A stretch of DNA of 64,000 nucleotides from a phage. Both the position numbers and the translations under genes were made by a program. Each line of letters starts with the position of its first letter. Within the stretch, counting starts at the first letter, position 1. Below are positions 1,805 through 64,000 of the stretch, piece after piece. The notes beneath the pieces were generated by a model. That model saw only the letters and a list, made by a program, of their open reading frames with translations, made no database searches and was not told the DNA's origin. Location: the sequence record PZ674596.1, one strand, 5' to 3'.

Positions 1805-4800
1805 ATGAAGGCACTGATGGTTCGAACTGACTTCTCACTTGGGGAGTCGGCTCTAAAAGCAGAAAACGCGGTGAAGATTGCCAGAGAAGCTGGCTACACC
1901 GCTGTAATTTCAGCAGATAGCATGAATATTGCGAGCGTTATTCCACTACAACGTGCCGCTGGTGACGACATGGCGGTTATTTGTGGTGTGAAACTAAACA
2001 TTGTTGATGATCCCACATACGAGCACCGGGCTAAACTTGCTAAAGAATCTATGAGATGTATGGAATCATTAGAGCGAGGACGTAACTACTCGTTTACCGC
2101 TCTAATTAAAAATGAGAAAGGATATCGCGACATCTGCGAACTAATGACGGCGGCCAACACACGAGAACAGTTCTACTTTGTACCGCGTCTCTCGCTCGAA
2201 CAGTTGGTTTCTACATATGCCAAAGGCAACATCATCCTGCTTACTTCCGACATCGGTAGCGTGTTCCAACGCAACGATTTTGCAAAAATCATAAGCACAC
2301 TGATTACAGCGGGTGGAAAAGACAACTTCTATAGTGTGGTTTATCCGCACCCTACCCCATTCTACGACCAGATTAACGTCCGGGCGATGAAAGTCGCCAG
2401 CGCATTGAAAATAGAGCCAGTGGCGTTCTATCCCGCTTATTACGAATCGATCGACGATGCAGACATTAAAGACATTGCGCACATGGTTACGAACAACATC
2501 AAAATCGACCAGCCGCATCGTCTGCGTATCCCCCACCAGCGAGATAACGCCGTCAATGGTCGCCGCCATCTCCTTGAGGCGCTTAAAGCCTTCTCCGTTC
2601 GCATGGATGTGCCGGTAACAGCTGCAATGGCCTCAACAACGCAGGATACCATTATCGATGCCTGCACATGGCGCTGGCATGAATTGCCGCCAGCACTGCC
2701 AAAGATGGCAGACGACGAGCCTGCAACGCTGATGAAACTGGCTGTTGCAGGGCTGCGTAAACGTCTTACCACAAAAGAGTTTGGATACACACCACCTGCT
2801 TCTGAGAACAGGGTTTATGTTGAGCGGCTAAAGTACGAAATGGACACGCTGACTCGCCTGGGATTCTGTGGTTACTTCCTGATGGTACGCGATCTGATGA
2901 ATCACAGCCGTGAAACTGGCATTCCTGTCGGGCCTGGTCGTGGTTCCTCCGCTGGATCTCTGGTGGCATGGTGCATAGGCATAACCAACGTCGACCCAAT
3001 CCGTCACGGTCTTCTGTTTGAGCGTTTCATCAACCCTGAGCGTCTCGACTTGCCAGATGCGGATTTGGACTTCAGCCAGGCACGTCGCCATGAGGTGATC
3101 GAGTATCTGAATGAACGATACGGCGAAGATTACGTTGCAGGTATTCCTAACTTCACATATCTGGGCGCAGCCTCTGCACTACGTGACACCGCTCGTATTT
3201 ATGGTGTGGAGTCCGCAGATATGGCGGTATCAAAAGAGCTGAGGAACGTCGAGGATGATAGCCTTCCATTGGAAGAGCTGCGCGAACAACTGGCAAGTCT
3301 CGACAAATACGCGACAAAATACCCTGATGCATTCAATGCAGCCTGCAAGTTACAAAGCCTTATGCGTGGCTTTGGTAGACATGCGGCAGGGATGATTGTA
3401 GCAGGTGTTCCTCTGACAGAACGTACACCGGTTGAACGACGTGGTGACGCGCGTTGTATCGCATTTGACAAGCGTTACTGCGAGGCTATGGGCCTAATTA
3501 AGCTGGACGTGCTTGGCCTGGCAACTCTCGATTTGCTCGATAGTGCAAAACGCTACATAAAAGAGAACACAGGTGAAGATATCAATCTTGATGCCATTTC
3601 TCTTGAAGATCGCAAGGTGCTGGATGGTTTTGCTGCTGGGTACACTCAAGGTGTTTTCCAGCTTGAATCAGGCCCAATGCGCAAGCTGCTTAAAGATTTA
3701 GGTGGTGGAATTGAGCCAATGAGCTTTAAAACGGTCGTTGCTACGACTGCGCTCTTCCGGCCGGGGCCAATTCAGTCAGGCATGTTGGATGATTATGTTT
3801 CTGTCGCCAAAGGCTTTATGACGCCGGAATCATTACACCCCGTTCTTGATGAACTTACCGCAGAAACAAATGGCGTGATTCTTTATCAGGAACAGACGAT
3901 GAACGCGACTCGATTGCTTGCTGGCTTCACAATGGCTGAAGCTGACGGCGTTCGTAAAGCGATCGGCAAAAAAGACATGGAGAAAATGAAGAGCATGGGT
4001 GAGAAGTTCATCGTTCAGGCTCAAGCTGGCTGGATAGACGTTGAGCTGGAAGATGGCACTACACAGCGCATTCACCGTGCGGAACATTTTAAATGCGAAG
4101 ACGGAACACTGAAAACTGTCGAAGAGGCACTTGAGTACGGCGCAAAACTACCTATAAACGCAGTACGCGTTACAGCGTCACATCCAGGGCTATCAGAGAT
4201 GAAAGCGAAGGAGATCTGGACCGCATTCGAAAAGAATGGTGCCTACCAGTTCAACAAATCACACTCTGTTGCTTACTCCTTAATCAGTTATCAATCTATG
4301 TGGTTGAAAACTCATTATCCCGCAGAGTTTTTCGCTGCTGCTCTCACTATTCTTGGCGAAGATAAACACCAGGGGCTGGTTAAAGATGCGCTGACCTATG
4401 GTATTCGCGTATTGCCACCAGACGTTAACGTGTCATCTAACCGAATCGAGATCCGCACGCTTGAAGATGGCAGCCAGGTGCTGTATGCGCCCTTCTCTGC
4501 TGTGAAAGGGTGTTCTGAGAATGGCTGCCAAGCCATCATGAGAGCGCGAGAAAAAGTTGGCGGCAAATTCGAGTCACTGGCGCAATTCGAAGAAGCTGTC
4601 GAGAAACGTGCCTGTAATAGTCGAGTGCGCGAATCACTGCAAAAAGTAGGTGCGTTTGCATCCATCGAGCCAGGTAGTCTGCCAGCAACTGATCCAGAGC
4701 GTCTCCGCGACCAGGCTGAATTGATGGGAAACCTTGTCATAGACGCAGTTAAAGCCTCACGTCCGTTTGAGATGAACCCCAAACGTTCGGCTGAAATTAA

Positions 4801-5880: not shown

Positions 5881-5997
5881 TTTTTGATAGATAATAAGTA
5901 AGTACTGATCTATCATTTAACAGCTCGAAAGAGCCACGAATGAACGAAAGCCCAACGCGCATAGCGCCATCGGCCAAATCACAACAAGGAGAAACAC

Positions 5998-12111: not shown

Positions 12112-12158
12112 ATGCAAACTGACTGCGGCACGTTCCGCAGTCATATTTCATAGTCGTC

Positions 12159-12691
12159 ACCGCTGACAGCATACACAATCAACTACCGCTGATAGCATAT
12201 CGAGAGTCTATCTCACCGCTCACAGCATACTTTACTCGATTTTTTACCGCTGACAGCATACTTAAGAAATTGCATGAATAATGTGTCCCGGTATGGGTAT
12301 AACCAGAACAAAATTACCGCTGGCAGCATACGAATGTCTGACATATACCATTAATTACCGCTGATAGCATATCCAAACAAAAATTCCTCAATAAAACACC
12401 GCTGACAGCATACGTTCTATCAGGGAGTAGCAGGCAATAAATGCCTTTCACTACAAGCAATCAGCGCAATAGCAATAGAATGTTAGTGAGCGCAAACCTA
12501 TATGGAATGCACTCTTCGAGGTTAGTAACCACTGGGGAGGTATGACAGAGCATTGAGTGGTGATAGATGATTTACCGCTCACAGCATACGTTCATCTCAC
12601 TATACCGCTGGTAGCATATCTTTAACCGTTCACAGCATACTTTTCAGAAAAATAGCCGCTGATAGCATACATTTCACCGCTGACAGCATAT
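12159..12691. repeat. iteron array: 12 direct copies of 16-bp ACCGCTGACAGCATAC (incA-like, downstream of repA)
   Basis: Copies start near 12159, 12185, 12215, 12246, 12316, 12357, 12398, 12574, 12604, 12625, 12655, 12676; all in one orientation, 1-2 mismatches each. Confidence 0.85.
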
Positions 12692-13785
12692 CAAAGCAGT
12701 TTGAGACTATTGGAAAGGATCTCAATCATCTTGATATTTTCAGGCGTCAAATTCTGCGAAAGTTCGGTTATCTTGTTGATAATGTTCTGTTTGGCATCAA
12801 TTTCCCCAGCTTTCTCATCTGGTTTTTTGGGTTCGATGTCTTCAGGTTTTGGCGGTGCGACTTTGAGTTTTGGATTGCGGCTGTGAATCTGGATATAGAT
12901 CGACCGCCCACGCTTAATCTCGCTGTATTCGAGATAGCCCAAATCTTGGAGAGCTTTTAAGCCGTTACGTATAGTCTGATTCTGCGAGCTGACATTCCTG
13001 CTACTCAAATTGAGTCGCGCACGCAATCGAGCAAGCGATACCGGCGCAGGCTTGGTTGGAAGACTTTCGATGAAGGTGTACAGAGCCTGTGCTGTTTCTT
13101 TGCGTGGTAGCTTATTGATAACCTTTAACTGCAAAAGAACCTTATGGTCAAAGCGATATAGTTCGGCCAGCTTCGGTTCTGCATAGAACACCACCGTATC
13201 TTTCTGCTCGTTGTAGTCCACGCTATTGATGAGGTGCACCATCAGAAGCGAGATCTTGTTAGAGCCGTCGACGTTCTTTTCTTCATACGTTCTCTGGAAA
13301 GACAGAGTTGTACGCATGATCTTCAAAAGACTGTTTGTAAGCCGGTCGCGGAGTGTTTTGCGGATCTGTGACGATGGATAGCCACAAAACTTAGCAAATT
13401 TCGTGATGCTTAACTCGACACGACCGTTAGGTTCGCCGTATTCTGCCAGCGAACGCACAACGCCCACCCACGTTTTGAAATCATGATCCATGTCGAGACG
13501 AGGACCGGTTATCTTGATATCGGAATAGCCTTCAGAACGGGCTACTTCGAGCTGGACAAGCTCCTTTGAAGCATCGATCTCATTTGGCTTGTTACGTTTA
13601 CTGTATTTTGTTCCCTTAAGCGTGGGGACGAACAACCCCAGTCGCATCAACGCAATTGGTTGGACTGTATTGTTGCTATTAGGGACAAGTTCCCCTGTGT
13701 ACAATTCAAGGGAACCTTCTTCAAAGTTGTCGATGTTATCTTCTACTTCTTTGTTATTTTTACCTTTTTTATTTTTTGTGGACAT
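12691..13785 (-). CDS. repA: plasmid replication initiator RepA (P1 RepA / RepFIB-like)
   Basis: 364 aa from ATG 13785 (the table's N-terminal 40 aa is read-through of the iteron region); motifs SNNTVQPIALMRLG, DIKITGPRLDMD, LYTFIESLP, HSRNPKLK match my recollection of P1 RepA; flanked by iterons on both sides. Confidence 0.8.
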   Translation of the reverse strand: MSTKNKKGKNNKEVEDNIDNFEEGSLELYTGELVPNSNNTVQPIALMRLGLFVPTLKGTKYSKRNKPNEIDASKELVQLEVARSEGYSDIKITGPRLDMDHDFKTWVGVVRSLAEYGEPNGRVELSITKFAKFCGYPSSQIRKTLRDRLTNSLLKIMRTTLSFQRTYEEKNVDGSNKISLLMVHLINSVDYNEQKDTVVFYAEPKLAELYRFDHKVLLQLKVINKLPRKETAQALYTFIESLPTKPAPVSLARLRARLNLSSRNVSSQNQTIRNGLKALQDLGYLEYSEIKRGRSIYIQIHSRNPKLKVAPPKPEDIEPKKPDEKAGEIDAKQNIINKITELSQNLTPENIKMIEILSNSLKLL

Positions 13786-13805
13786 GTGGACACCTTTGTC
13801 ATTCA

Positions 13806-13907
13806 ACCGCTGACAGCATACTTGATTTGCCGCTGACAGAATACCAAAAACAGTTGGCAGCATACGGTGAACCGCTGACAGACTATCAATTACCGCTGAC
13901 AGCATAC
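13806..13907. repeat. upstream iterons (4 full + 1 half copy), incC/origin-like
   Basis: Same 16-bp iteron near 13806, 13829, 13871, 13892 plus half-site GGCAGCATAC near 13856. Confidence 0.75.
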
Positions 13908-19622: not shown

Positions 19623-21938
19623 ATGATAAGCATCGTAAAACGTAACGGCCAAACAGAGCCGTTATCCGAAGAAAAATACAACCGCGTCGTAATGTATGGC
19701 GTAGAAGGCATTCGTGGTGTAAGCGCATCCGCTGTAGCAATGGGAGCTGCGGCCAGCATTTTTGATGGGATGACCACCAGCCAGTTGCATGAGGCTTTGG
19801 TTAAATCTGCCGCTGATTTGATCTCACCAGAAGCACCAAATTACTCACAGGTGGCTGCCCGCCTGAACATTTTTAAAATCCGCAAAGATGCCTTCGGTCG
19901 TTACGACTATCCGAACTTCTACCAACACATTGTCAAGAACGTTAACAAGGGCGTTTATGACAAGGATTTGCTGACACATTATTCGTTTGAAGAGATCGAA
20001 GAACTCGGCAATTACATTAAGCCTAAACGTGACGATCTTTTTGGCTATGCAGCTACGGTGCAGTTGCAAAGCAAATACCTCGTTCAAAACCGTGTTACTG
20101 GTGAGATTCATGAGGGGCCGCAACATATCTATATGCTGGTAGGCATGTGTCTGTTCCAGAATTGGGAAGACGACTGCGCTGGCAAAACACGTATGGAGAT
20201 GGTCAAAGGTTTCTATGACGTTACAAGTACGTTCAAACTGTCTCTGCCCACACCAATCATGGCCGGCGTCCGTACTCCAACCCGTCAGTTCTCCAGTTGT
20301 GTGCTGATTGAGTCTGGCGATAGTCTGAAAGGGATTAGTGCAGCTTCAGCCGCAATTATCGACTACGTTTCACGTCGTGCTGGAATTGGTATTGGTTTTG
20401 GCCGTATCCGTGCGCTGGGCAGCGAGATCCGCAATGGTGAAGCCACCCATACCGGAGTTATTCCATTCCTGAAGCATTTCCAGACGGCTGTTAAATCTTG
20501 TTCGCAAGGTGGTGTTCGTGGTGGCGCAGCAACAGCGTTTTACCCGATCTGGCATCTTGAAGTTGAAAGTCTGCTGGTGGTGAAAAATAACCGTGGTATT
20601 GATGAAAACCGCGTTCGCCATCTTGATTACGGCGTCATGAGTAACCGTCTAATGTACCGTCGACTCGTCAGAAGCGAGAACATCACTCTGTTCAGCCCGC
20701 ATGATGTGCCTGATATGTACGAAGCCTTCTTCACAGACCAGGAGCTGTTTGAAAAGCTGTACCATAAATACGAAGCCGATGATTCAATTCGCAAGAAGTC
20801 AGTACCTGCCATTGAGCTGTTCTCATCTCTGATGCAGGAACGAGCGTCCACGGGCCGAATTTATATTGCGAACGTCGATCATATTAATGAGCATGGCGCT
20901 TTCATTCCTGCTCTTGCACCTGTCCGCCAGTCAAACCTGTGTATGGAGATCACCCTACCCACCCGTCCACTGGCATTTACCGACGACCCGAACGGTGAGA
21001 TCGCGCTATGCACTTTATCCGCTTTTAACCTCGGAGCCATCCGTTCACTGGAGTCTCTTAAAGAGGTGGCGTTCTATGCCGTTGCTGCACTGGATTCGTT
21101 ACTGGATTATCAAGACTATCCGATGGAGGCAGCCGAAGTGCCTGCCAAAGCTCGTCGTAGCTTGGGAATTGGTGTAACCAACTTTGCTTATTACCTGGCA
21201 AAGAATGGCGTTCGTTATTCTGATACCGCTGGCAATAAACTGGTGCATGAAACGTTCGAAGCTATCCAGTATTACCTTCTTGATGCCAGCTGCCGACTTG
21301 CTGAAGCAAAAGGTGAGTGTGACTGGTTTGAGCAGACCAAATACGCAATTGGTCAGTTGCCGATCGACCATTACCGTTCTTCATTAGACGAAAGTGGCGA
21401 AACCAACTTTGAGTTAAAGATGCCGTGGGAAGAACTGCGTGAACGTATTGCAAAATACGGCCTTCGCAACTCCACACTGACGGCACAAATGCCATGCGAG
21501 ACTTCCAGCCAGATCACTAATTCCACCAACGGCATCGAACCGCCTCGTGGCCCGGTGTCGGTGAAATCTTCTAAGGACGGCATCGTTAAGATGGTCGTGC
21601 CTGAGTTTGAAAAACTGAAGGAACAGTATGAATACCTGTGGGATATGCCGGACAACCGCGGCTATCTGACAAAGGTGGCGATCATCCAGAAGTTCTTTGA
21701 CCAGGCTATTTCAGCCAATACCAACTATGACCCTTCTCGCTTTGAAGGCGATAAAGTCCCAATGATGACGCTACTGTCAGATTTGCTTCTCGCCTACAAG
21801 ATGGGAGTTAAAACGCTTTACTACCACAACACCAGAGATGGTGCAGGAAAGCGTGATGACGACGAACCGCAGAATCCACTGGCGCAAGCTGTAGCCGTCG
21901 AGCCAGAAGATGAGTGCGACGGAGCCTGCAAAATCTGA
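19623..21938 (+). CDS. nrdA: ribonucleotide reductase class Ia large subunit
   Basis: 771 aa; active-site region SNLCMEITLP and overall NrdA-like sequence. Confidence 0.9.
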   Translation: MISIVKRNGQTEPLSEEKYNRVVMYGVEGIRGVSASAVAMGAAASIFDGMTTSQLHEALVKSAADLISPEAPNYSQVAARLNIFKIRKDAFGRYDYPNFYQHIVKNVNKGVYDKDLLTHYSFEEIEELGNYIKPKRDDLFGYAATVQLQSKYLVQNRVTGEIHEGPQHIYMLVGMCLFQNWEDDCAGKTRMEMVKGFYDVTSTFKLSLPTPIMAGVRTPTRQFSSCVLIESGDSLKGISAASAAIIDYVSRRAGIGIGFGRIRALGSEIRNGEATHTGVIPFLKHFQTAVKSCSQGGVRGGAATAFYPIWHLEVESLLVVKNNRGIDENRVRHLDYGVMSNRLMYRRLVRSENITLFSPHDVPDMYEAFFTDQELFEKLYHKYEADDSIRKKSVPAIELFSSLMQERASTGRIYIANVDHINEHGAFIPALAPVRQSNLCMEITLPTRPLAFTDDPNGEIALCTLSAFNLGAIRSLESLKEVAFYAVAALDSLLDYQDYPMEAAEVPAKARRSLGIGVTNFAYYLAKNGVRYSDTAGNKLVHETFEAIQYYLLDASCRLAEAKGECDWFEQTKYAIGQLPIDHYRSSLDESGETNFELKMPWEELRERIAKYGLRNSTLTAQMPCETSSQITNSTNGIEPPRGPVSVKSSKDGIVKMVVPEFEKLKEQYEYLWDMPDNRGYLTKVAIIQKFFDQAISANTNYDPSRFEGDKVPMMTLLSDLLLAYKMGVKTLYYHNTRDGAGKRDDDEPQNPLAQAVAVEPEDECDGACKI

Positions 21939-29922: not shown

Positions 29923-30516
29923 ATGATTGCAGCCGAAAAAATCAAACAGCGAAAGCGCGACAACTCTCTTCGTGACCTCTGGAGAACACCTGACTGGCTG
30001 TTTTCTGCCATTCAACGTTATCTTGGAGTGACATTTGATGTTGACGTTGCCTGCAACAAGGACAATGCAAAGCTGCCTAATTTCATAGGCGTTGAGCGTG
30101 ATGCTTTGAAATCTGAATGGGGACAGCCAGGTACAATTGCCTTCCTCAATCCACCCTACTCCAAAATCTACCCCTGGATTGATGCGGCTATACGTGAGCA
30201 GGCTCGTGGAGTTACAACAGTGATGCTAATTCCTCAATCCCTAGATACAAAGTGGTATGAGCGTGCAACAGAGTGTGCGAATGAGACGATTATTCTGTCT
30301 GGTGGCCGCGTAGCGTTTGTCGAGCCTGACGTAAATCTGGGTCAGGTAGAAGTAAACATCAACCCAGGTGGCAGTATGCTCGTTGTTTTTCGAGGATTCT
30401 GTCAGGACGCTGGGCACTCTATAAGCAAGATCCCTTTGGACGTCATGAAAAGTCTGGGAGGGTATGATCCTGCGAATGTGATCAGGAAAAAAAGACCATC
30501 AAAGAAGGCTGCTTAG
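29923..30516 (+). CDS. phage-type N6-adenine DNA methyltransferase (Dam-like)
   Basis: 197 aa; catalytic motif FLNPPYS; small size typical of phage Dam family. Confidence 0.75.
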   Translation: MIAAEKIKQRKRDNSLRDLWRTPDWLFSAIQRYLGVTFDVDVACNKDNAKLPNFIGVERDALKSEWGQPGTIAFLNPPYSKIYPWIDAAIREQARGVTTVMLIPQSLDTKWYERATECANETIILSGGRVAFVEPDVNLGQVEVNINPGGSMLVVFRGFCQDAGHSISKIPLDVMKSLGGYDPANVIRKKRPSKKAA

Positions 30517-30537
30517 TTTGTTCTGGCGTCTGTAATT

Positions 30538-30595
30538 AGCCTGCTTCTGTATATATAAATAACTACATATTAATTATTAATATACGGAAGCAGGC
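30538..30595. repeat. large AT-rich palindrome (copy 1 of 2)
   Basis: AGCCTGCTTCTGTATATATAAAT...ATATACGGAAGCAGGC; near-identical arms recur at 63197-63251. Confidence 0.7.
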
Positions 30596-30701
30596 AGCTT
30601 TGTATCAGAGACTCCAGACCTGAACATCACTACAGAATCCACTAGAACCCCTTCCCAGACGCTTTAAAATCGATTTTATGAACCACTTTAAGGAAACCAA
30701 C

Positions 30702-30932
30702 ATGTCATACCCGACTAATGTCGTTGCGCTCGTAGAGAGCGATTTTCTGGCCCAGGCTCGTGAAATGATGAAAGATCGTGAGCAGGCTTTCAACTTGTAC
30801 GAATGGGCAATTAAGTGCTTGCATCTTGGCGAGCATCGCGAACTTGTTGAACAGCTTTTAGGTGAGTTGATCAATGAGGTGTTTGCCTTGAATGTTCAAC
30901 TACATGGTAGAGAAAATAATCAATCACAATGA
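30702..30932 (+). CDS. hypothetical protein
   Basis: 76 aa from ATG after AAGGAAACC; table ORF starts 24 nt earlier. Confidence 0.4.
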   Translation: MSYPTNVVALVESDFLAQAREMMKDREQAFNLYEWAIKCLHLGEHRELVEQLLGELINEVFALNVQLHGRENNQSQ

Positions 30933-31514
30933 TAGATAAGTACAAACTATTCATAAAGTGAATTGTAAGTGCTAAGATCTGATAGTTTCCAGTCGTAGAC
31001 TGGAGACTCGACCTGATGGGTGGGGGTAAGCGTCACTGGCGTCAGGTTTAAAAAAGCTCACTACCAGCGTAGAACTGGTGCCGTTTAGGTGTCGGGGAAG
31101 GGGGAACCAAAGTGAGCAGAGACAAGGGTCACTTTATGATTGTCGAGTCTGGGGTGTTTCGAGAGGTTGAATCCAGTACTCCCCTTCATAAAGTGTGGGA
31201 AGATCTCGGTTCTGGGGTGCTGTCATCCATAACTTCCCAAGTCTAAGCTGGCAGTAGACTTAGACCATAACTTTTCAGGTTATGAAACGACCAGGTTGGT
31301 GAGAGATTTTTATACTCACCTCCCTGGGAGAGTATTACCTGAAAAGACAACCTCTCACTTCGTTCGAGGTGAACTTCACTCACTTCGTTCGTTCAGTTCA
31401 GGTTTATAAAAACCTGTTCTGGGAAGTAATTTGTTTATTTTAATAATTATTAACACGCACGCGTGTGCGCACGCGCGAGGAAAAATCGGCGCGGCGCTTG
31501 ATTCAGGAGTTTAT

Positions 31515-33465: not shown

Positions 33466-33623
33466 TGCTTGAGAGATTCCGGCTTGTGATCGTCATTGCT
33501 CTTCTGGTGATGGCGGTGTTGGTGGATTTTACGGGAAAGATGATGTCTGTCATTTCTGATGGCGTCCTCATTGGTCTGGCGATCTACTTCGCTTATCCGT
33601 TAGTTCGTAAAGCAAAGTGTTAA
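33465..33623 (+). CDS. small membrane protein (52 aa, not in ORF table)
   Basis: ATG overlaps upstream stop (TAATG); translation MLERFRLVIVIALLVMAVLVDFTGKMMSVISDGVLIGLAIYFAYPLVRKAKC; followed by a terminator hairpin. Confidence 0.4.
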   Translation: MLERFRLVIVIALLVMAVLVDFTGKMMSVISDGVLIGLAIYFAYPLVRKAKC

Positions 33624-36217: not shown

Positions 36218-36922
36218 ATGAACAACCTCCAGTTAGAGCATTTTAACGTCACAGGCCATTCTGATTTTCCTTTCAAGTTTACATTGAAAGGTTATGCAGA
36301 GGATGCGGTAGGCCAGATCATTATTGATAAAGGCATCGTTAAGTTTGAGGGGAATTTTGATGAATCCGCGAAAACATTCATAGACTTCGTTGCCAAACGT
36401 TGGAGCGAGCAATGGAAAGACCTGGAAAAGCGCGCTAATGAGTTTGATCGGTTCATGGATGCAATGGATACAGCAAAAGAGGCTCTTGCTGCCGGGACTC
36501 CGTTAGATCTGGAGTCACTTTTCAACGGCGAAGTGGCCTCTGCGATGTTCGCCACCATGTTCGCGGGTGAGTTCGTCCGCAGCGGTGCCAAAAACTACCT
36601 TGAGCTGGATTACAACGTCCCTGCAATTGGCGACTTCGTCGTTACCATCCAACGCAAAGAAGGTAAGACGCCAGGTGAACGCGTCGCAGAGCTTGAGGCC
36701 GTTGTGGATCAGCGTAACGGAGAGTGTGACCGTTTGATCAACGAGCTTCATGCACTTCGGGAAGAAAGAATATGTGCGGGTAGCAATACACGTAATGCTG
36801 CGGATATCTACTTCCAGTTAGTCGAGGAATGCCAGATTCCACCAGGTGGCTCTCTTGTCGATTACGTCAGACATTTAATGGCGGAAGTTAACTCCAGCCA
36901 TAAAGATGGTGAGGTGCGCTGA
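36218..36922 (+). CDS. hypothetical protein (shares C-terminal module with 39406..40098)
   Basis: 234 aa; C-terminal NTRNAADIYFQLVEECQIPPGGSLVDYV also present in a second protein. Confidence 0.5.
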   Translation: MNNLQLEHFNVTGHSDFPFKFTLKGYAEDAVGQIIIDKGIVKFEGNFDESAKTFIDFVAKRWSEQWKDLEKRANEFDRFMDAMDTAKEALAAGTPLDLESLFNGEVASAMFATMFAGEFVRSGAKNYLELDYNVPAIGDFVVTIQRKEGKTPGERVAELEAVVDQRNGECDRLINELHALREERICAGSNTRNAADIYFQLVEECQIPPGGSLVDYVRHLMAEVNSSHKDGEVR

Positions 36923-37302: not shown

Positions 37303-37332
37303 ACGCTACAAATCCTTCGGCATGAATAAATA

Positions 37333-37395
37333 AAGGCCATAAGTTGTGGCCTTAAATAAATTGTTTTCCACCTTTTCTTATTTGTGAAAATAACC
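37333..37395 (+). promoter_or_regulatory. conserved terminator-promoter cassette
   Basis: Hairpin AAGGCCATAAGTTGTGGCCTT followed by AAATAAATTGTTTTCCACCTTTTCTTATTTGTGAAAATAACC; related copies near 42960, 46910, 50971, 51577. Confidence 0.55.
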
Positions 37396-39405: not shown

Positions 39406-40098
39406 ATGACCAACATTAACTATCAGGCACTGCGTGAAAAGGCAGAAAAAGCAACGTGGGGAGACTGGGACTCATATAAACCACACCGTGGCGCACGTGG
39501 TTATAAGGTCCGACTAAGTGGTCAGGCCATTGCGCAACACGTTCTGAAAAACAACGCTGAATTTATTGCTGCCTTTAATCCAAAGGTTGCTTTGGCATTA
39601 CTGGATGAACTGGAAAGAAACCAGCAATACATCAAACGCCGTGACCAGGAGAACGAGGAAATTGCGCTAACGGTAGGGAGGCTTCGCGTTGAGCTGGAAG
39701 GCAAAGACAGCAAAATAGCCAATCTTACCGCCGAACGCGATGCTCTTCGTGAAGGTGAGATGGGCGACGCTAGGCATAGCAACACACGGGCCGCAGCTGA
39801 TATCTACTTCCAACTGGTCGAGGAGTGCGAAATTCCTGCTGGCGGTTCTCTGGTCGAGTACGTTGACGATATGCGCGAGAAGTTGGAAGCCGCAGAGAAG
39901 CGCATTGCAGAGTTAGAAAGTGGTTCTCAGGCACAAAAGTTAGTTGAAGCAATCATTGTTGCGATAGAAAACGAACAGGAAAGGCTTTTTGATGAAGATT
40001 ACCTAATGGATTCGAAAGAATGCATTGACGTAATTCGTGAAGAAGTAAAGCGATGGAATGATTCCCGTGCCGCTGGCATTCGCATCAAAGGAGAGTGA
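39406..40098 (+). CDS. hypothetical protein (paralogous C-terminal module)
   Basis: 230 aa; NTRAAADIYFQLVEECEIPAGGSLVEYV matches C-terminus of 36218..36922. Confidence 0.5.
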   Translation: MTNINYQALREKAEKATWGDWDSYKPHRGARGYKVRLSGQAIAQHVLKNNAEFIAAFNPKVALALLDELERNQQYIKRRDQENEEIALTVGRLRVELEGKDSKIANLTAERDALREGEMGDARHSNTRAAADIYFQLVEECEIPAGGSLVEYVDDMREKLEAAEKRIAELESGSQAQKLVEAIIVAIENEQERLFDEDYLMDSKECIDVIREEVKRWNDSRAAGIRIKGE

Positions 40099-42943: not shown

Positions 42944-42959
42944 GCATCCCTTCTCCATT

Positions 42960-43022
42960 AAGGCCACTAGTTGTGGCCTTAAACAATTTGTTTTCTACCT
43001 TTTCTTGTTCGAGAAAATAACG
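42960..43022 (+). promoter_or_regulatory. conserved terminator-promoter cassette
   Basis: AAGGCCACTAGTTGTGGCCTT followed by AAACAATTTGTTTTCTACCTTTTCTTGTTCGAGAAAATAAC. Confidence 0.55.
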
Positions 43023-46880: not shown

Positions 46881-46995
46881 CATATAGACACAATCCCTCC
46901 TGATTTACACAAGCCCTAAAACAATTTGTTTTCTACCTTTTGTTGATTGAGATAATAAGCCACATAAGAAAACAACTTGTTTTGGAGTAGTTGAA

Positions 46996-48189: not shown

Positions 48190-48935
48190 TTATACAAATA
48201 AGAAAACAACTAAATAACAGATCAACGAAACGTCAACGCTTTCACCCGATTTGGTCTAAAAAATTGACGTTTTCACACATCACTTCTTATACCCGTAACT
48301 CTACGCAGCAGACAGCGCCACAGCGTCCAATTTTCACCACAGACGACCCAACACACTACCAACAAAAACACACGCTCAAAATCGCTCCCGTTGCGTTACA
48401 CAACCATATAAACAACTTATTTTCAGGCATAACAAAACAACTAAATAACACACATGCCATTCCCAAAAACAACCAACCTCTTTATGGCAGGCTACCGAAA
48501 AGACCCACCTCTTCTCCCCAGGCTACCGGACAACCAACCTAACTTTCACAGGCAATCCGAAAACATTCATACGCGCGATACCCACGACACGCCATTCCCC
48601 AAACAGCGAAGAAACACCAGAATCACTGAAACCCCAACGAAGCCTGTAACCGCAAGGATTCTCTCAATCCCAAAAGACACGAAACAGAACAATCACGGGA
48701 AACGCCATTACCCAATACACGAATAACTACAAAAGCCTTTCACACACTCCAGACAAACAACTCAAACACAATAACGAAAGGAATCGCCCACCTGCCATTA
48801 CTCCATACACGGAGAAGAACAATCACCAAAACGACGAGAACACCCCATAGAAGAACCACCGCAAAACGAACGAAACCACATACACCGACAGAGAAAACAG
48901 CACACCCAATTCACCAACAGAAATAGTCGCCGTAT
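48190..48935 (+). repeat. G-depleted A/C-rich low-complexity tract with dispersed direct repeats
   Basis: ~750 bp with almost no G on plus strand; 17-mer AAAACAACTAAATAACA twice (near 48199 and 48434); GCCATT(C/A)C(C/T)C-type repeats near 48456, 48591, 48704, 48794. Confidence 0.7.
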
Positions 48936-50942: not shown

Positions 50943-50970
50943 AATGGCGCGTAAACCGCGCCATTTTATT
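50943..50970 (+). terminator. Rho-independent terminator
   Basis: AATGGCGCG-taaac-CGCGCCATT followed by TTATT. Confidence 0.65.
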
Positions 50971-51050
50971 AAGCCCGATAACAATTTGTTTTCTGCCTTA
51001 TCTGATTTGTGAAAATGATTTCACTGAAGCAAGTTAATAAGGAAACCATC

Positions 51051-51425: not shown

Positions 51426-51775
51426 ATATGGGCGATTTCAAGAAACGCCTGAAGGAAAGAGCCGAGATGGTCAGAAAGCAAAACGCCTCTTCTGTCATCA
51501 GATACGCAAGGCAGTTTAGTCGCAACAACAAATCAGTTGAGGAAAAGATCCTTAGCGTAATCGTGCGATAATTATTAAGGCCACCAGCATTGGTGGTCTT
51601 AAATGACCATCCTGTTTCCCTCAGGCTAATAACACCAACCTCTTACCTCCAGGCAACCGACAAACCCACCTGTTCCCGTCCGGCTACCGCAACTTTCCAC
51701 TTTGACGCCTTATTCGTACAACGATAATTAACGCCAACAAGAAAACAATTTGTTATTTACGATAAGGAATTAATC

Positions 51776-59998: not shown

Positions 59999-60679
59999 AT
60001 GGATGTAAAAATCACGATTTTGCAGGTTGATGTTGCCAACCTTCGCCCGAATACCTGGAACACCAATTCGGTTGGTGCGCAGAATTTTGAAAAACTGAAA
60101 GGTTCTATCGAAAAATTGGGCTTTTTTAAGCCAATTTTGGCTCGTGAACTTGAAGATGGATTTTTTGAAATCCTCGGCGGCGAACATCGCTGGCGTGCTG
60201 CTATTGAGCAAGGAATTTCAACGGTTCCGGTGCTTTCTGTGGGCAAAATTAGCGATGTCGTAGCTAAACAGATGTCACTGGTGGACAACGAGCGATACGG
60301 TGAAGACGACCAAATCGCATTGCAACGCTTCATTGAAGAAATTCAGTCAGAACTTGACTATCAACTGTCTGAAATCGCCCCGTATGACGACGAAATCTCG
60401 ATGGTTTTAGCAAAAGAGGCGGCAATCGACCTTGAAGCACTGGAGGCGTTGTCTCGTGGTAGTGATGAGCCTGTCGATACCGACAAACGAGAGAAAACCG
60501 AACGTGTGGGTGCGGAACATCAGACCATGCGCTTCAAAGTAACTTTCGATGCGTCAGATCGTGTTGCAGAAACCATAAAAAACATCATCAAAGAGCAGGC
60601 TATTAACACCGGTAATGAAATGGAGAACGCTGGTGAGGCTCTGGTGTGGCTGGTCGACTACTACAAGGAGCGTATGTAA
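59999..60679 (+). CDS. ParB N-terminal-domain (ParB/Srx-like) protein 1
   Basis: GGEHRWRAA ParB box-II-like motif; start uncertain (ATG 59999 or GTG 59981). Confidence 0.5.
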   Translation: MDVKITILQVDVANLRPNTWNTNSVGAQNFEKLKGSIEKLGFFKPILARELEDGFFEILGGEHRWRAAIEQGISTVPVLSVGKISDVVAKQMSLVDNERYGEDDQIALQRFIEEIQSELDYQLSEIAPYDDEISMVLAKEAAIDLEALEALSRGSDEPVDTDKREKTERVGAEHQTMRFKVTFDASDRVAETIKNIIKEQAINTGNEMENAGEALVWLVDYYKERM

Positions 60680-61347
60680 TGACCAAAAAGTTTGAAATCG
60701 TATATCGCGACCCGGCAGATCTTATTCCCTATGAGATGAATGCCAAAAAGCATGATGAACAGCAGATCCGAGATCTGGCCGCAGCCATTAAAAAGCGCGG
60801 ATTTGACCAGCCAATTACGGTCGATAAGAACGACGTAATTATTACTGGCCACGGCCGCCGTGAGGCTGCAATTTTTGCTGGACTTGAGCGCGTACCGGTT
60901 ATTGTTCGCGATGATCTCAGTGATGACGAGGTTCGTGCGAAGCGCCTTGAAGATAACCGACTTGCCAGCATTGATTACGATGCAATTAAGCTACAGAAAG
61001 AGCTTGAGTCGCTTGTTCTGGACGATATCGAGGTTTTCGGCTTTGAAGAGCGTGAGTTGAATGTTCTCGTTGGCAGTATGACAGAAGAAATGGACACCGA
61101 TTCGCTAGTTATCGATCTTGGCGAAGAAACTAAACGACAGAAGGATGAACACACCGAGATCAGTCGTGAAGTTGCAGCGGAAGAAGTACGTGTTGTCGAC
61201 GTATTGGGCTTTAAAACGCTCCCTGCTGGCTCTGCCATTGTTGTTGGTGATTTGCTTGCCCACATGGAAGAAATGACGGGAGAAAGCGGGGTAGACGCAT
61301 TTGTGGCATATGCGGAGAAGATCTCTTCCGGGGAGATGGCTGCATGA
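60679..61347 (+). CDS. ParB N-terminal-domain (ParB/Srx-like) protein 2
   Basis: 222 aa from ATG overlapping upstream stop; ITGHGRREAA motif; acidic C-terminal half. Confidence 0.5.
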   Translation: MTKKFEIVYRDPADLIPYEMNAKKHDEQQIRDLAAAIKKRGFDQPITVDKNDVIITGHGRREAAIFAGLERVPVIVRDDLSDDEVRAKRLEDNRLASIDYDAIKLQKELESLVLDDIEVFGFEERELNVLVGSMTEEMDTDSLVIDLGEETKRQKDEHTEISREVAAEEVRVVDVLGFKTLPAGSAIVVGDLLAHMEEMTGESGVDAFVAYAEKISSGEMAA

Positions 61348-62009
61348 GCAAATACATCATCAACGTATCGTTTCAGACACGCGTAAATAAAACCACGCGC
61401 ACGTTGGAAATCGCTGAGTCGTTCGGGCTTGGCCTGGACGAAAAAGAGTGGACGCTTTACGACAATCTGGAGCTGGAAGTGAAGCAGGGCGATGTGGTGT
61501 ACATCACCGGCCAATCCGGTTCTGGCAAATCCGTTGTGCTGCGCGAGTTGCAACGCCAGATGAAGGATGAAGGGCTTTCTGTAGCCTCCATCGATGATTT
61601 TACCTTCGATAATGAGGTTAACGTCATCGATCAGTTGGGCAAAACGACCAGTGATGCGCTTGGGTTGTTATCTATGGCTGGTCTGAACGATGCATATCTG
61701 TTTGTTCGCAAGCCTTCTGAAATGTCAGACGGCCAGAAATATCGTCTCAAGATTGCCAAACTGATTGAGTCAGGCGCTAAAGTGTGGGCTGCTGACGAGT
61801 TCGGCGCTGTTCTCGACCGTGTAACCGCTCAGGTTGTGGCGTCTAACCTCCAGCGTGCCGCTCGAAAGGTTGGTGCGACGGTAATGGTGGCGACGACTCA
61901 CGAAGACCTGAAGAACGCGCTGCGCCCGGATATGCAGATCACCAAGCACTACAAAGAACGCGTGAAGGTGGAATATCACAATGGTAGTCACGATGAGGTC
62001 CATTCATGA
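61344..62009 (+). CDS. soluble ABC-type ATPase
   Basis: 221 aa; Walker A GQSGSGKS, signature-like SDGQKYRL, Walker B VWAADEF, H-loop TTHED; no membrane domain. Confidence 0.55.
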   Translation: MSKYIINVSFQTRVNKTTRTLEIAESFGLGLDEKEWTLYDNLELEVKQGDVVYITGQSGSGKSVVLRELQRQMKDEGLSVASIDDFTFDNEVNVIDQLGKTTSDALGLLSMAGLNDAYLFVRKPSEMSDGQKYRLKIAKLIESGAKVWAADEFGAVLDRVTAQVVASNLQRAARKVGATVMVATTHEDLKNALRPDMQITKHYKERVKVEYHNGSHDEVHS

Positions 62010-62896
62010 CGGACATCATCATTAAACGCTACCGCCCTGAAGAGTTTCCGCGTCATCTGGACTTTCTGGAGCGAATGACTGTTACAAAGGGAACTGTAGA
62101 GGACTGGCACGCTCTTAAGTCGCTTCACTACAAAACAGACGGCAAACCTTTCGCGCCAACTTACTATCGCTGCGAACTTGATGACCGTCTGGTGGGCGTC
62201 GTGGTTATGGCTTACCCGAAACTACTGTTGGCACCTCGCCACCGCATGTTTCCTAAGTTGAAACCAACCACTAATACCACCGTGGCTAACCAGTACTGGG
62301 GTCGGTACGTGAATAACAACTTTGCGGTGATCAGTCGCTCAGTTGTGGATACTCAGTATCGTGGCGTAGGCGTCTCTTATCGAATGATTAACCTGGTTAG
62401 CAGGATGCATGACCGGCCAATCATTGAGATCCAGTCCTCGATGAGCAAATACAATCCCTTCGCCATGAAAGCAGGGTTTAAGTTCATCCGCCCTGAGCGA
62501 CCGAAGAGCTATGAAAGTGCACTGCGTGTATTCCAGCGCCATTTCCGTTCTGACCCGGGTAATAACGAGGCGATCGTCAAAGAGTTGTTCGCAATGAGCG
62601 AGTCTCGTCGTCGCCGTGCACTGCGTGATCTGGTGGCGGACTACCACAAGAACAGTTCCCTGGCAAAAGCTGGGCGGAATCGTGGCACGACGATTCAGGA
62701 CATTGCCGACAGTCTGGTGGACGAGGCCAGCATTGTGAAGCTGCTCAAGGACATTCACAACCTGAGCTTTACGTCTCCGTTGTATGGTGTGTACCGAAAC
62801 CCTGACTTTGGCCGTCGACTGCCTGACACGCTGCCACTGCTGGCATTCGACAAACAACCTTTGGATAAACCGTTAGAAATTGCTTTACCGGCATAA
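62006..62896 (+). CDS. hypothetical protein (possible GNAT-like fold)
   Basis: 296 aa; RSVVDTQYRGVGVSYRMINLV resembles acetyl-CoA-binding motif; overlaps ATPase stop. Confidence 0.4.
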   Translation: MTDIIIKRYRPEEFPRHLDFLERMTVTKGTVEDWHALKSLHYKTDGKPFAPTYYRCELDDRLVGVVVMAYPKLLLAPRHRMFPKLKPTTNTTVANQYWGRYVNNNFAVISRSVVDTQYRGVGVSYRMINLVSRMHDRPIIEIQSSMSKYNPFAMKAGFKFIRPERPKSYESALRVFQRHFRSDPGNNEAIVKELFAMSESRRRRALRDLVADYHKNSSLAKAGRNRGTTIQDIADSLVDEASIVKLLKDIHNLSFTSPLYGVYRNPDFGRRLPDTLPLLAFDKQPLDKPLEIALPA

Positions 62897-62905
62897 GGAT
62901 TTGCC

Positions 62906-63172
62906 ATGACGTTAACCGACAAACAAAAGGACATCATCAAAACGCTCAATCTCGGTTATGAGCGAGGTCATCTACTTGATCTGGACGAATTGCTTGAAGT
63001 TTTGCCGTACAAGACAACAAAGCAAAGTATCCAGTTCTCAATTCGCGCTCTGATAAAAAAGGGGCTGGTGGAGAAAGGGCATACGCGCCAACGCAGTGAC
63101 AATCGCTATCACCGCCGGACTCTTGGGTTAACCACTTTAGGTCGAGCCAAAGCGAAGTTACTGGTGATGTAA
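62906..63172 (+). CDS. small basic protein, possible winged-helix DNA-binding
   Basis: 88 aa; helix-turn-wing-like segment; last gene of operon. Confidence 0.4.
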   Translation: MTLTDKQKDIIKTLNLGYERGHLLDLDELLEVLPYKTTKQSIQFSIRALIKKGLVEKGHTRQRSDNRYHRRTLGLTTLGRAKAKLLVM

Positions 63173-63196
63173 TCGGTCTGGGAGCTTATTTAAAGA

Positions 63197-63251
63197 CCTG
63201 CTTCTGTATATATAAATAATAAGTAACTTATTAAATATATACGGAAGCAGG
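63197..63251. repeat. large AT-rich palindrome (copy 2 of 2)
   Basis: CCTGCTTCTGTATATATAAATAATAAGTAACTTATTAAATATATACGGAAGCAGG; centre is ATAAGT-A-ACTTAT. Confidence 0.7.
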
Positions 63252-63368
63252 CTTAGTAAGACATGCCCAGACCTAATTAAACACCCCAGAAAACAAGTTG
63301 GTTAGCATACGCAGTAAACAAGTTGTTTTAGAGCGCATGGACGCGCTCTGTGTGTTTTAGAGGGATCT

Positions 63369-64000
63369 ATGACGGTCGAAAAAGACGAGGTAAAAACTCG
63401 CCTGACACCAGCGGAGTGGGCCGAAGCTGAAGCCAAATGGACGTCAGGCGAATATACACTCTCAAAGCTGGAGGAAGAGTACGGCATTCGTCGTGAAACA
63501 CTCTCCAGACATTTCAAAAAGCGAGGATTAGAGAAAGGCGCGGACTCTGTTGGGAAGATGGTTCGTGAGTCTCTTAAATCTGACGCAGAGCTTCGCGCTA
63601 AAGCTCGTGCGGAAAAGATAGAAGAACGTCGTACACGTTATGACGGCTGGGCGTATGCGTTGGGGCAGATGGTGATGGTCGAAGTCACTACGGCCAAACG
63701 TGAGGGTAAGCCTTTAGGGGCGATTGAGGATTCTCTCAAGAGCTTACAGAGAGCCAGTAATACCCTTGCAAAATGCTTTGAAGTTTCGTCCAAAGCATTG
63801 GGCATGGATCATGCGGAAAATGACGAGGAAGAAATTCCGAACCTGGTATTTGGTGAGCTTACGCCTTCCCAGGTGGCGAAATTACGTCAGGAAGACGACG
63901 AGCCTGAAATCATCGATGACGAATTGCTTGAGACGTTGGAAGAAGAAGCTCTAAGCGAATTTGATGCGACAGATGATGGAAGTGAAGGGGAGGACGAATA
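63369..64000 (+). CDS. hypothetical protein, 3' end outside window (possible DNA-binding / terminase small subunit-like)
   Basis: Open frame from ATG 63369 to window end (not in ORF table); very acidic downstream part; preceded by AAACAAGTTGTTTT motifs. Confidence 0.4.
   Translation, partial: MTVEKDEVKTRLTPAEWAEAEAKWTSGEYTLSKLEEEYGIRRETLSRHFKKRGLEKGADSVGKMVRESLKSDAELRAKARAEKIEERRTRYDGWAYALGQMVMVEVTTAKREGKPLGAIEDSLKSLQRASNTLAKCFEVSSKALGMDHAENDEEEIPNLVFGELTPSQVAKLRQEDDEPEIIDDELLETLEEEALSEFDATDDGSEGEDE

Follow-up and report, generated by a model that had tools for sequence, protein, structure and literature searches.

A three-copy palindromic element of SSU5-like phage-plasmids as a candidate module-boundary stem-loop

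What are two long, nearly identical palindromes doing between the genes of a phage-plasmid? The question is raised by a 64,000-nt stretch of sequence record PZ674596.1 (hereafter the window), which is part of an SSU5-like phage-plasmid with nearly all of its genes on the plus strand; it matches Escherichia phage CMS-2020a at 99.9% identity over 2 kb, phage Cyrano at 98% and Salmonella phage SSU5 at 79%. A preliminary description of the window had noted two near-identical A+T-rich palindromes, copies A and B below, and suggested that they might be bidirectional terminators, cruciform sites or recombination targets. Both palindromes are real, and the coordinates first assigned to them were correct to within 1–2 nt. 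What that description missed, and a survey of copy number in relatives revealed, is that the pair is part of a three-copy family in which each copy is tied to the gene block downstream. The answer we favor, at a probability of roughly 0.4, is that the elements are module-boundary terminator/insulator stem-loops set in a composite boundary cassette, and that they are recognized by, or co-evolve with, a specific factor.

Anatomy and distribution of the element

The upper palindrome of copy A (CCTGCTTCTGTATATATAAATAACTACATATTAATTATTAATATACGGAAGCAGG) occupies positions 30540–30594 on the plus strand, with G30539/C30595 extending the pairing by one. It is made up of a GC-rich 5′ box (CCTGCTTCTG), a 35-nt core of pure A+T and a 3′ box (CGGAAGCAGG), with a T:G pair at stem position 9. 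Copy B (CCTGCTTCTGTATATATAAATAATAAGTAACTTATTAAATATATACGGAAGCAGG; 63197–63251, plus strand) has GC-rich boxes as in A, and its core is centered on AATAAGT-A-ACTTATT. The first 23 nt and the last 17 nt of the two copies are identical and the center differs, which amounts to 82% ungapped identity over 56 nt. In the upper stem the G+C-rich box CCTGCTTCYG pairs with CRGAAGCAGG and is followed by (TA)n, and the base of the stem is CCTGCTTC/GAAGCAGG; the pure A+T core is only partly palindromic, frequently with TAAGT-N-ACTTA at its center. The 23-mer, allowing up to 3 mismatches, is found at exactly 2 places in the window and at none in 100 shuffles. No isolated half-sites of the palindrome are present in the window, and no target-site duplication lies beside copy A or B.

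A lower stem is formed by an outer inverted repeat (GTCTGGGAG upstream, CTCCCAGAC downstream) lying 13–22 nt out on either side. Its halves at copy A are GTTCTGGCGTCT (30520–30531), which starts 4 nt after the stop codon of the preceding Dam gene, and the CTCCCAGAC-type motif AGACTCCAGACC (30609–30620); those at copy B are GGTCTGGGAG (63175–63184), starting 3 nt after the stop codon of an 88-aa gene, and CCCAGACC (63266–63273), all on the plus strand. Upper and lower stems together make an extended imperfect hairpin of ~100 nt, and with the outer stem included the full element starts 0–4 nt after the upstream stop codon. RNA folding of 116-nt segments yields −38.9 kcal/mol for A (z = −5.6) and −50.6 kcal/mol for B (z = −10.2). 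The heptamer CCCAGAC occurs on the plus strand at 2 places in the window, each adjoining a hairpin; EcoP1I sites (AGACC) in the outer repeat were considered and set aside, as their last base is not conserved. The palindromes had been called longer than ordinary terminators, and indeed the terminator-like hairpins nearby have stems of just 5–10 pairs. Pairwise comparison of the loci shows that they have identical GC-rich arms in common, and that the outer inverted repeat and the paralogy of the flanks downstream come on top of these. This goes far beyond a generic AT-rich hairpin; such a hairpin, or chance, is excluded as an explanation.

Copies A and B each lie between co-directional genes. 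Copy A follows a gene for a Dam-family methyltransferase (29923–30516; Pfam Dam, E = 3e-38) and precedes a 76-aa gene (30702–30932; phrog_5343), its upper palindrome lying 24 nt past the Dam-like stop codon and 107 nt short of the ATG at 30702. Copy B is placed between the 88-aa gene (62906–63172; phrog_900) and a terS-like gene (from 63370; phrog_867), with its upper palindrome 25 nt past the stop codon of the former and 118 nt short of the ATG of the latter at 63370; next comes TerL, a match to the Terminase_6N and Terminase_3 families. Each of SSU5, Cyrano and the E. coli plasmid NZ_CP117002.1 has exactly three palindromes, one after the Dam gene (locus A), one before terS (locus B) and one, which falls outside the window, before a 246-aa gene (phrog_2500; locus C) that leads a DnaB-helicase/primase/ligase/DnaE block. 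An orthologous three-site layout is also found in a Providencia plasmid and in a second Klebsiella lineage. The three sites, ~25–50 kb apart, split the ~105-kb circle into a segment for replication and nucleotide metabolism, an accessory and regulatory segment, and one for packaging, structural proteins, lysis and partition. Throughout the E. coli and Salmonella lineages the distance from the upper hairpin to the next ATG is 107–118 nt at all three loci, and the upper palindrome of every copy sets in 0–25 nt after the upstream gene.

The flanks downstream of A, B and C are paralogous and share one order: a CTCCCAGAC motif, a TTTTACAC..CCAGAAC motif, a CCAGWCGCT block and a ribosome-binding site. 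The second of these belongs to a motif family that is found upstream of many other start codons in the window. At copy A the flank (30621–30701, plus strand; next gene from 30702) contains a degenerate TGAACATCAC..CAGAATCC motif, a second CCCAGAC (30654–30660), the block CCAGACGCT..AATCGATTTTATG and a ribosome-binding site. At copy B (63277–63328, plus strand) it contains TTAAACACCCCAGAAAACAAGTTGGTTAG and TAAACAAGTTGTTT, both of the genome-wide AGAAAACAAnTTGTTT family, followed between hairpin B and the terS start at 63370 by a small canonical terminator-like hairpin, TAGAGCGCATGGACGCGCTCTG then TGTGTTTTAG (63329–63360, plus strand). By eye, the three downstream genes themselves (76 aa, terS and 246 aa) show no similarity, and paralogy among them was rejected.

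We recovered ~85 copies from viral contigs, and in PLSDB 800 plasmids of about 100–115 kb, from Klebsiella, Escherichia, Enterobacter, Yersinia, Salmonella, Citrobacter and Cronobacter, carry the element at 3122 places. Among 5426 complete E. coli genomes, 259 (4.8%) have it, at 404 places on plasmids (1–3 per plasmid) and at none on the chromosomes. A scan of bacteria with one genome per species returned only SSU5-like contigs (Kluyvera, Buttiauxella, Y. pestis and one metagenome bin labelled Bacillota), apart from two matches that are unrelated chance hairpins; a scan of viral contigs with the divergent arm as a 14-mer was swamped by chance matches. Rfam 15 has no match in the whole window at gathering thresholds, and at E-values up to 10 there is only miRNA-precursor noise well below threshold. 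In the searchable literature the palindromes turn up neither under their topic nor as a sequence string. The family is real and widespread, has apparently not been described before, and clearly bears the marks of selection and of three copies that co-evolve. A mobile palindrome of the MITE or REP type was rejected: the sites are fixed and orthologous from Escherichia to Providencia, and both target duplications and chromosomal copies are absent.

Conservation and change of arms, core and flanks

We compared the element across lineages and found that pairing is retained through changes of sequence, in the lower stem and between lineages. The GC-rich arms hardly vary within the main lineage. Among 13 distinct B copies of the main lineage, 24 upper-stem pairs show no compensatory change and a single pair alternates between C:G and U:G; the flanks diverge freely. 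At that alternating pair C:G, T:G, C:A and T:A all occur across loci, and other changes in a single arm are uncompensated. In the lower stem of B, one lineage has two adjacent pairs altered on both sides, from G:C to A:U and from U:A to A:U, and the lower stem of A occurs as GGGAGTT/AACTCCC or as GGGAGTG/CACTCCC. When 15 arm pairs from five lineages were scored for covariation, 91.9% of the cells were paired and 5 of 12 pairs had changed on both sides; none of 500 shuffles reached the observed score, and slid controls were 35–48% paired. The sequences are mutually related, and the result is support rather than proof.

Distant relatives keep the layout with arms of their own. In the Providencia plasmid pPROV236-2, whose proteins are 46–82% identical, a long hairpin is present at all three loci and an arm variant (GCCGTGCTCCCATA ... 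TATGGGAGCACGGC) is common to the three copies; Providencia elements fold as long hairpins with closing arms of 14–18 bp. A mini-open reading frame over the 5′ arm of Providencia copy A (MKAVLP) is not kept at the other loci and was dismissed. The second Klebsiella lineage has the variant ATATAGGAGCCAGGC and ~35 nt of A+T-rich sequence common to all three loci; it has lost the 5′ arm at A and C, and carries small canonical GC hairpins with T-runs 20–60 nt downstream of the 3′ arm. Other lineages have intermediate arms, with 5′ arms degenerate to varying degrees and a 3′ arm near TA-Y-R-GGRAGC-N-GGY. The 3′ arm is the most conserved part of the element, and the core, or distance between the arms, ranges from 21 to ~130 nt across lineages. 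In the Klebsiella plasmid NZ_CP032196.1 (locus L341, ~20330–20510, and locus L342, ~20330–20660) the inverted pair CTCCCAGA/TCTGGGG lies around a small canonical terminator that is found downstream from the 3′ arm. This outer pair does not enclose the big palindrome, and outer repeat and arms are therefore separable modules.

The core is free to turn around. At locus C the A+T core has been inverted in place with its flanks unchanged, reverse-complement alignments scoring 29, 31 and 20 against 18, 17 and 13 for the forward ones, and orthologues at A and B retain the orientation of their cores. It is therefore structure or symmetry that is kept, and not direction. In one plasmid B and C are 100% identical over 55 nt, and within a lineage core variants are common to B and C; from this we conclude that the copies evolve in concert. 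The flanks of A and B are constant, and so is the downstream flank of C, whereas upstream of C at least eight unrelated sequences run exactly to the 5′ edge of the hairpin, so that the element belongs to the block downstream of it.

A boundary stem-loop and the readings that compete with it

These observations are best accommodated, in our opinion, by elements that would act mainly on the nascent transcript, as boundaries between modules. The palindrome tops a ~100-nt imperfect stem-loop at the head of each of three large co-directional gene blocks. Its GC-clamped hairpin would stop or pause RNA polymerase arriving from the upstream block, and the extended lower stem, forming in read-through RNA alone, would present a double-stranded substrate to a processing enzyme such as RNase III. 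The downstream block would thus be insulated and expressed from its own signals in the conserved 107–118 nt before the start codon. A specific factor, from phage or host, probably recognizes the stem; otherwise gene conversion would have to keep the copies alike. Either such a factor, or gene conversion together with a second function of the 3′ arm, is called for because conservation of the arms exceeds structural need and variants are common to all three copies. What the sequences show directly is how the element is built, where it is fixed, how strongly it is conserved, that its pairs change in compensation and that each lineage shares its own variant among the copies; termination, processing and the factor we infer.

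Pairing maintained by compensatory change, a core whose orientation makes no difference, the tight position after the preceding gene and the G+C clamp at the base of the stem all favor a boundary stem-loop. Relatives have a T-run right behind the 3′ arm at A and C (CTTTTTAAG, TCTTTTTCT, TCTTTTAAAAG) and at most of the divergent B loci, taking the form CTTTTT, TCTTTTT or TCTTTTAAAA, and purine-rich runs precede the 5′ arm. We also count in its favor the second Klebsiella lineage, where the big hairpin has decayed and small canonical terminators are found near the retained 3′ arm. The small terminator before terS (63329–63360) suggests, on sequence grounds, that expression of the late genes would need read-through, that is, control of the antitermination type.

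The layout resembles that of the lambda sib/tI and T7 intercistronic RNase III sites, where a hairpin and a U-run are nested in a longer interrupted stem. There too an upper stem, an internal loop and a lower stem are placed between co-directional phage genes and the longer stem forms in read-through RNA only; by this analogy the read-through RNA may be processed. Those sites differ in that they are not sequence-identical, co-evolving repeats and the tops of their stems are not pure A+T.

Several points weigh against a terminating boundary. Intrinsic terminators have a G+C-rich stem of ~5–14 bp, a loop of 3–8 nt and a T-run 0–2 nt after the stem. The paired region here is 16–25 bp with an A+T top, the arms are 21–35 nt apart here and up to ~130 nt in Providencia, and the sequence right after the stem is CAGCTTTGT at A and CTTAGTAAG at B; a terminator scan finds nothing at either window copy, where the tails are CAGCTTTGTATC (A) and CTTAGTAAGAC (B). 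The loops of 25–130 nt in some lineages are atypical of intrinsic terminators. A separate small canonical terminator lies 78 nt beyond B, where the big hairpin is not needed for termination, and in one E. coli plasmid the gene upstream of C is divergent, so that no upstream transcript has to be stopped. Neither RNA strand is consistently preferred: the plus strand folds better in 14 of 16 B copies and the minus strand by ~16 kcal/mol in the A copies of Salmonella, and a strand-specific RNA signal, sought in G:U versus C:A pairs, is inconsistent between loci. Structure alone, finally, explains neither conservation of the stem sequence nor why the 3′ arm is conserved more than the 5′ arm. The bidirectional terminator of the preliminary description accordingly fares unevenly: it gains from the T-runs and purine-rich runs of relatives and loses from the departure of the window copies from the terminator consensus, as well as from an inter-arm distance that reaches ~130 nt in one lineage.

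In another reading, doubtful to our minds, the elements are cis sites of a dedicated, undescribed factor that co-evolves with them in each lineage and either switches all three blocks at once or fires three lytic origins as an initiator. As a switch it would be a phage protein specific for the hairpin or its boxes, working through antitermination, processing or repression. In either case the arms would spell a lineage-specific address code, which would explain why the E. coli/Salmonella, Providencia and second Klebsiella variants each appear in all three copies.

That the elements are lytic replication origins or DNA-unwinding sites, with an initiator bound to the inverted boxes and the A+T core melting or extruding as a cruciform, we consider unlikely. 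There would be three origins for a 105-kb genome with genes of its own for a DnaB-like helicase, a primase and a DnaE polymerase, and copy C lies directly upstream of the phrog_2500-DnaB-primase genes. The 35 nt of 100% A+T between conserved inverted boxes fit this idea, a spacer of 21 to ~130 nt suits melting or extrusion more than a rigid dimer site, and arms that are conserved and co-evolve in the three copies of each lineage are as expected for a trans-acting DNA-binding protein. The copies are also distributed round the circle at ~25–50 kb intervals, and they track the conserved phage core rather than the variable plasmid replicon, whose iterons sit at 12153–13906. There is, however, no switch of GC skew at either window copy and no iteron array at the palindromes, where CCAGAC-type repeats are few and common genome-wide; no initiator was identified, phrog_2500 being without a Pfam match. 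Degeneration or loss of the 5′ box in several lineages while the 3′ box stays would be odd for a symmetric initiator site, and both the constant spacing from the start codon and the presence of T-runs suggest transcription rather than replication. The oriS and oriL of herpes simplex virus are palindromic origins with an A+T center between inverted initiator boxes, and the likeness extends to two to three copies per genome and a possible hairpin form; the present elements differ from them in the lack of an identified initiator and of any skew or replication signal, and in that one box is dispensable in some lineages. The window also has a candidate replicon of plasmid type, at least 11 iterons (ACCGCTGACAGCATA) at 12153–12690 and 13800–13906 flanking a 404-aa gene (open reading frame 12691–13905, minus strand). 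From its sequence it looks like the RepA-plus-iteron replicon of the prophage, apart from the palindromes.

Equally improbable is a reading at the level of double-stranded DNA, with the elements as binding sites for a single conserved phage regulator, through which the promoters of all three blocks would be controlled jointly; the 3′ box would coincide in part with the core of the promoter or with the start of transcription, and the 5′ box would be a second, weaker inverted site. It is consistent with an element that keeps to its downstream block even when a different sequence lies upstream, with box variants that are lineage-specific and common to all three loci, and with the finding that the 3′ arm and the adjoining AT-rich stretch form the most conserved unit, conservation ending sharply after ...GGC. 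The 3′ arm of Providencia type, TAYTAT|GGGAGC, resembles a −10 hexamer with a GGGA-type discriminator, and matches to TTTGCA-17-TATTAT and TTGTAA-17-TATTAT end at this arm. These Providencia matches are nevertheless within shuffle expectation, no sigma-70-like promoter was found at either window copy, and the flip of the core at C speaks against a directional promoter inside it, which is unlikely in the main lineage. Spacers varying from 21 to 130 nt are hard to square with a single dimeric regulator, and the compensatory changes and frequent T:G pairs fit pairing at least equally well. Immunity operators, moreover, usually diversify, and these arms are the same in about 800 plasmids.

Other promoter and operator types were tried and rejected. 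TATAGGAGCC and CTATGGGAGC recall the T7 and SP6 promoter cores, but the window has no open reading frame of the size of a phage RNA polymerase and none is annotated in relatives. A T4-type late promoter (TATAAATA, inside every hairpin) is put down to A+T coincidence, with no sigma-like gene annotated and a core that can flip. A LexA box (CTGTATATATATACAG) is represented by half-sites only.

Two other sets of motifs in the window may be recorded here. The AGAAAACAAnTTGTTT family (TTAMRCMA-N3-AGAAAACAAnTTGTTT) has 10–20 copies, mostly just upstream of ribosome-binding sites and start codons (21987, 33718, 34432, 46905, 46964, 48190, 49578, 50062, 51729, 53206, 63277 and 63316); it shows no sigma-70 match, and a degenerate copy is located at a fixed distance after each big palindrome. 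Intergenic palindromes of the type ATAGGTAAGTACTTACCTAT are found at 5891, 9414, 14872, 19557, 24276, 29890, 32093, 36151 and 59945, and also in Cyrano (locus L125, ~31290–31320) and SSU5 (locus L002, ~33590–33620). They are operator-like, and one directly precedes the start codon of the first gene of the replication block; the center of hairpin B (AATAAGTAACTTATT) resembles them.

We judge it very unlikely that the elements are recombination sites, whether recombinase targets or hot spots for inversion, deletion or module exchange between copies. The identity of B and C over 55 nt in one plasmid, the core variants that these two copies share within a lineage, the core flipped in place and the at least eight upstream sequences abutting hairpin C exactly at its edge lend this proposal of the preliminary description indirect support, and the arm CTTC(C)GTATA is loosely like the loxP arm ACTTCGTATA. 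Yet any palindrome that is repeated can be expected to undergo gene conversion and flipping as side effects, all the genomes examined have their genes in one and the same order between the copies, with no inversion or deletion seen, and crossing-over between direct copies would delete 25–50 kb of essential genes. Core sites of tyrosine recombinases (loxP, dif, cer) have inverted arms of 11–13 bp and a spacer of 6–8 bp. The geometry here is wrong, with a variable spacer of at least 35 nt between the boxes, and no conserved recombinase accompanies the elements, an integrase gene being found in some lineages only and absent from the SSU5 annotation; loxP-like arms were rejected on their geometry.

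That copy B is a pac or cos packaging site, and A and C its relics, is most improbable: B does lie 118 nt upstream of terS, and hairpin B is where the linear GenBank records of both SSU5 and Cyrano start and end, but Cyrano starts at the same base as SSU5, a start probably set by homology and not independent, TerL of the Terminase_6N/Terminase_3 type would usually indicate headful packaging, and near-identity and equal conservation of A and C would not be required of pac or cos. Many metagenome contigs end ~50–450 nt from one of the hairpins, and they do so near all three types, as expected of assembly breaks at a repeated palindrome; the cuts in the two records are probably an assembly break or a convention of the record and not a real DNA end. 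A partition site of the parS or sopC type is likewise unlikely, because two of the copies, A and B, sit a long way from the par genes and the family tracks the phage core, even though copy C follows the parA operon, directly in some lineages. Plasmid pMT1, for its part, presumably carries a par system of P1 type, complete with a parS. Directly upstream of hairpin B, a set of four genes (60646–63172) encoding a ParB_N-domain protein, an ABC-type ATPase, a 296-aa protein (phrog_886) and the 88-aa protein (phrog_900), winged-helix-like by eye, is kept in every lineage examined.

Comparison with known systems and significance

The element has relatives in logic among known repeats. REP/BIME and ERIC are imperfect palindromes of enterobacterial intergenic regions, with proposed roles in mRNA stability and termination. 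Like them, the present elements are imperfect palindromes just after stop codons in transcribed intergenic regions, with copies kept similar; REP and ERIC differ in being chromosomal and present in tens to hundreds of copies, against no chromosomal places in 5426 E. coli genomes and 1–3 copies per plasmid here.

Closer are the PeSL of T4-type phages, composite terminator/promoter cassettes (PMC2839356, PMC4122927). Both are short, conserved, non-coding stem-loop cassettes that are repeated in one phage genome between co-directional genes and border variable gene segments, as seen at C in the at least eight unrelated upstream sequences that end at the hairpin edge; in both the sequence differs between phage lineages and is common within a genome, and recombination between copies is invoked for both. 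PeSL are small stem-loops fused to a recognizable sigma-70 early promoter and present in many copies in hyperplastic regions. The elements described here, by contrast, have three copies at fixed orthologous sites, a palindrome of 55–170 nt with a pure A+T core and no sigma-70 match at the window copies. Elsewhere in the window are composite cassettes at 37330–37394 and 42957–43021, each with a small G+C hairpin (AAGGCCAC..GTGGCCTT) followed by AAACAAnTTGTTTTC and a conserved 25-nt tail; at 46903–46958 and 50955–51019 motif and tail are kept without that hairpin. By analogy, such cassettes (small GC hairpin plus AAACAAnTTGTTT motif) look like the terminator/promoter cassettes of PeSL.

The ESAS of Cluster K mycobacteriophages are 17-bp imperfect inverted repeats with a variable spacer, located upstream of Start-Associated Sequences (PMC3203893). 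They share with the present family conserved inverted repeats of variable spacing upstream of a second short motif that precedes start codons, a place that the AGAAAACAAnTTGTTT family would fill in the window, as well as one repeat nearer the consensus than the other and lineage-specific differences of consensus. ESAS have spacers of 4–13 bp, occur in ~5–10 copies per genome and lie immediately beside the start-associated motif (PMC3203893), whereas the core here is 21–130 nt, the copies number 3 and each precedes its start codon by ~115 nt, and the sequences are unrelated. The family thus shares the logic of PeSL and ESAS and differs from them in size, in its A+T core, in having exactly three fixed copies and in the link to three gene blocks.

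Two further repeats of the window lie apart from the palindromes. Tandem pairs of a 30-nt repeat (ACCAACCTCTTTATGGCAGGCTACCGAAAA, 70–77% alike) are located at 48472–48532 and 51634–51693, with 3.1 kb between them, and an 87-nt direct repeat of 77% identity, with 3 kb between its copies at 36781–36867 and 39777–39863, is probably part of paralogous coding sequences.

Phage-plasmids of the SSU5 type are frequently met with in clinical Enterobacterales, and some carry resistance genes. Yersinia pestis pMT1 and Salmonella Typhi pHCM2 both have relatives in the group, and the element is present on Y. pestis plasmid contigs. For these genomes the palindromes would explain why assemblies and records tend to break at these sites, and why an accessory region is exchanged exactly at one of them. 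Beyond this, a strongly conserved three-copy element at the head of the replication, accessory and packaging/structural blocks offers an obvious handle on the switch between plasmid maintenance and lytic growth, being open to mutation, to exchange between lineages and to use as bait in the search for its partner.

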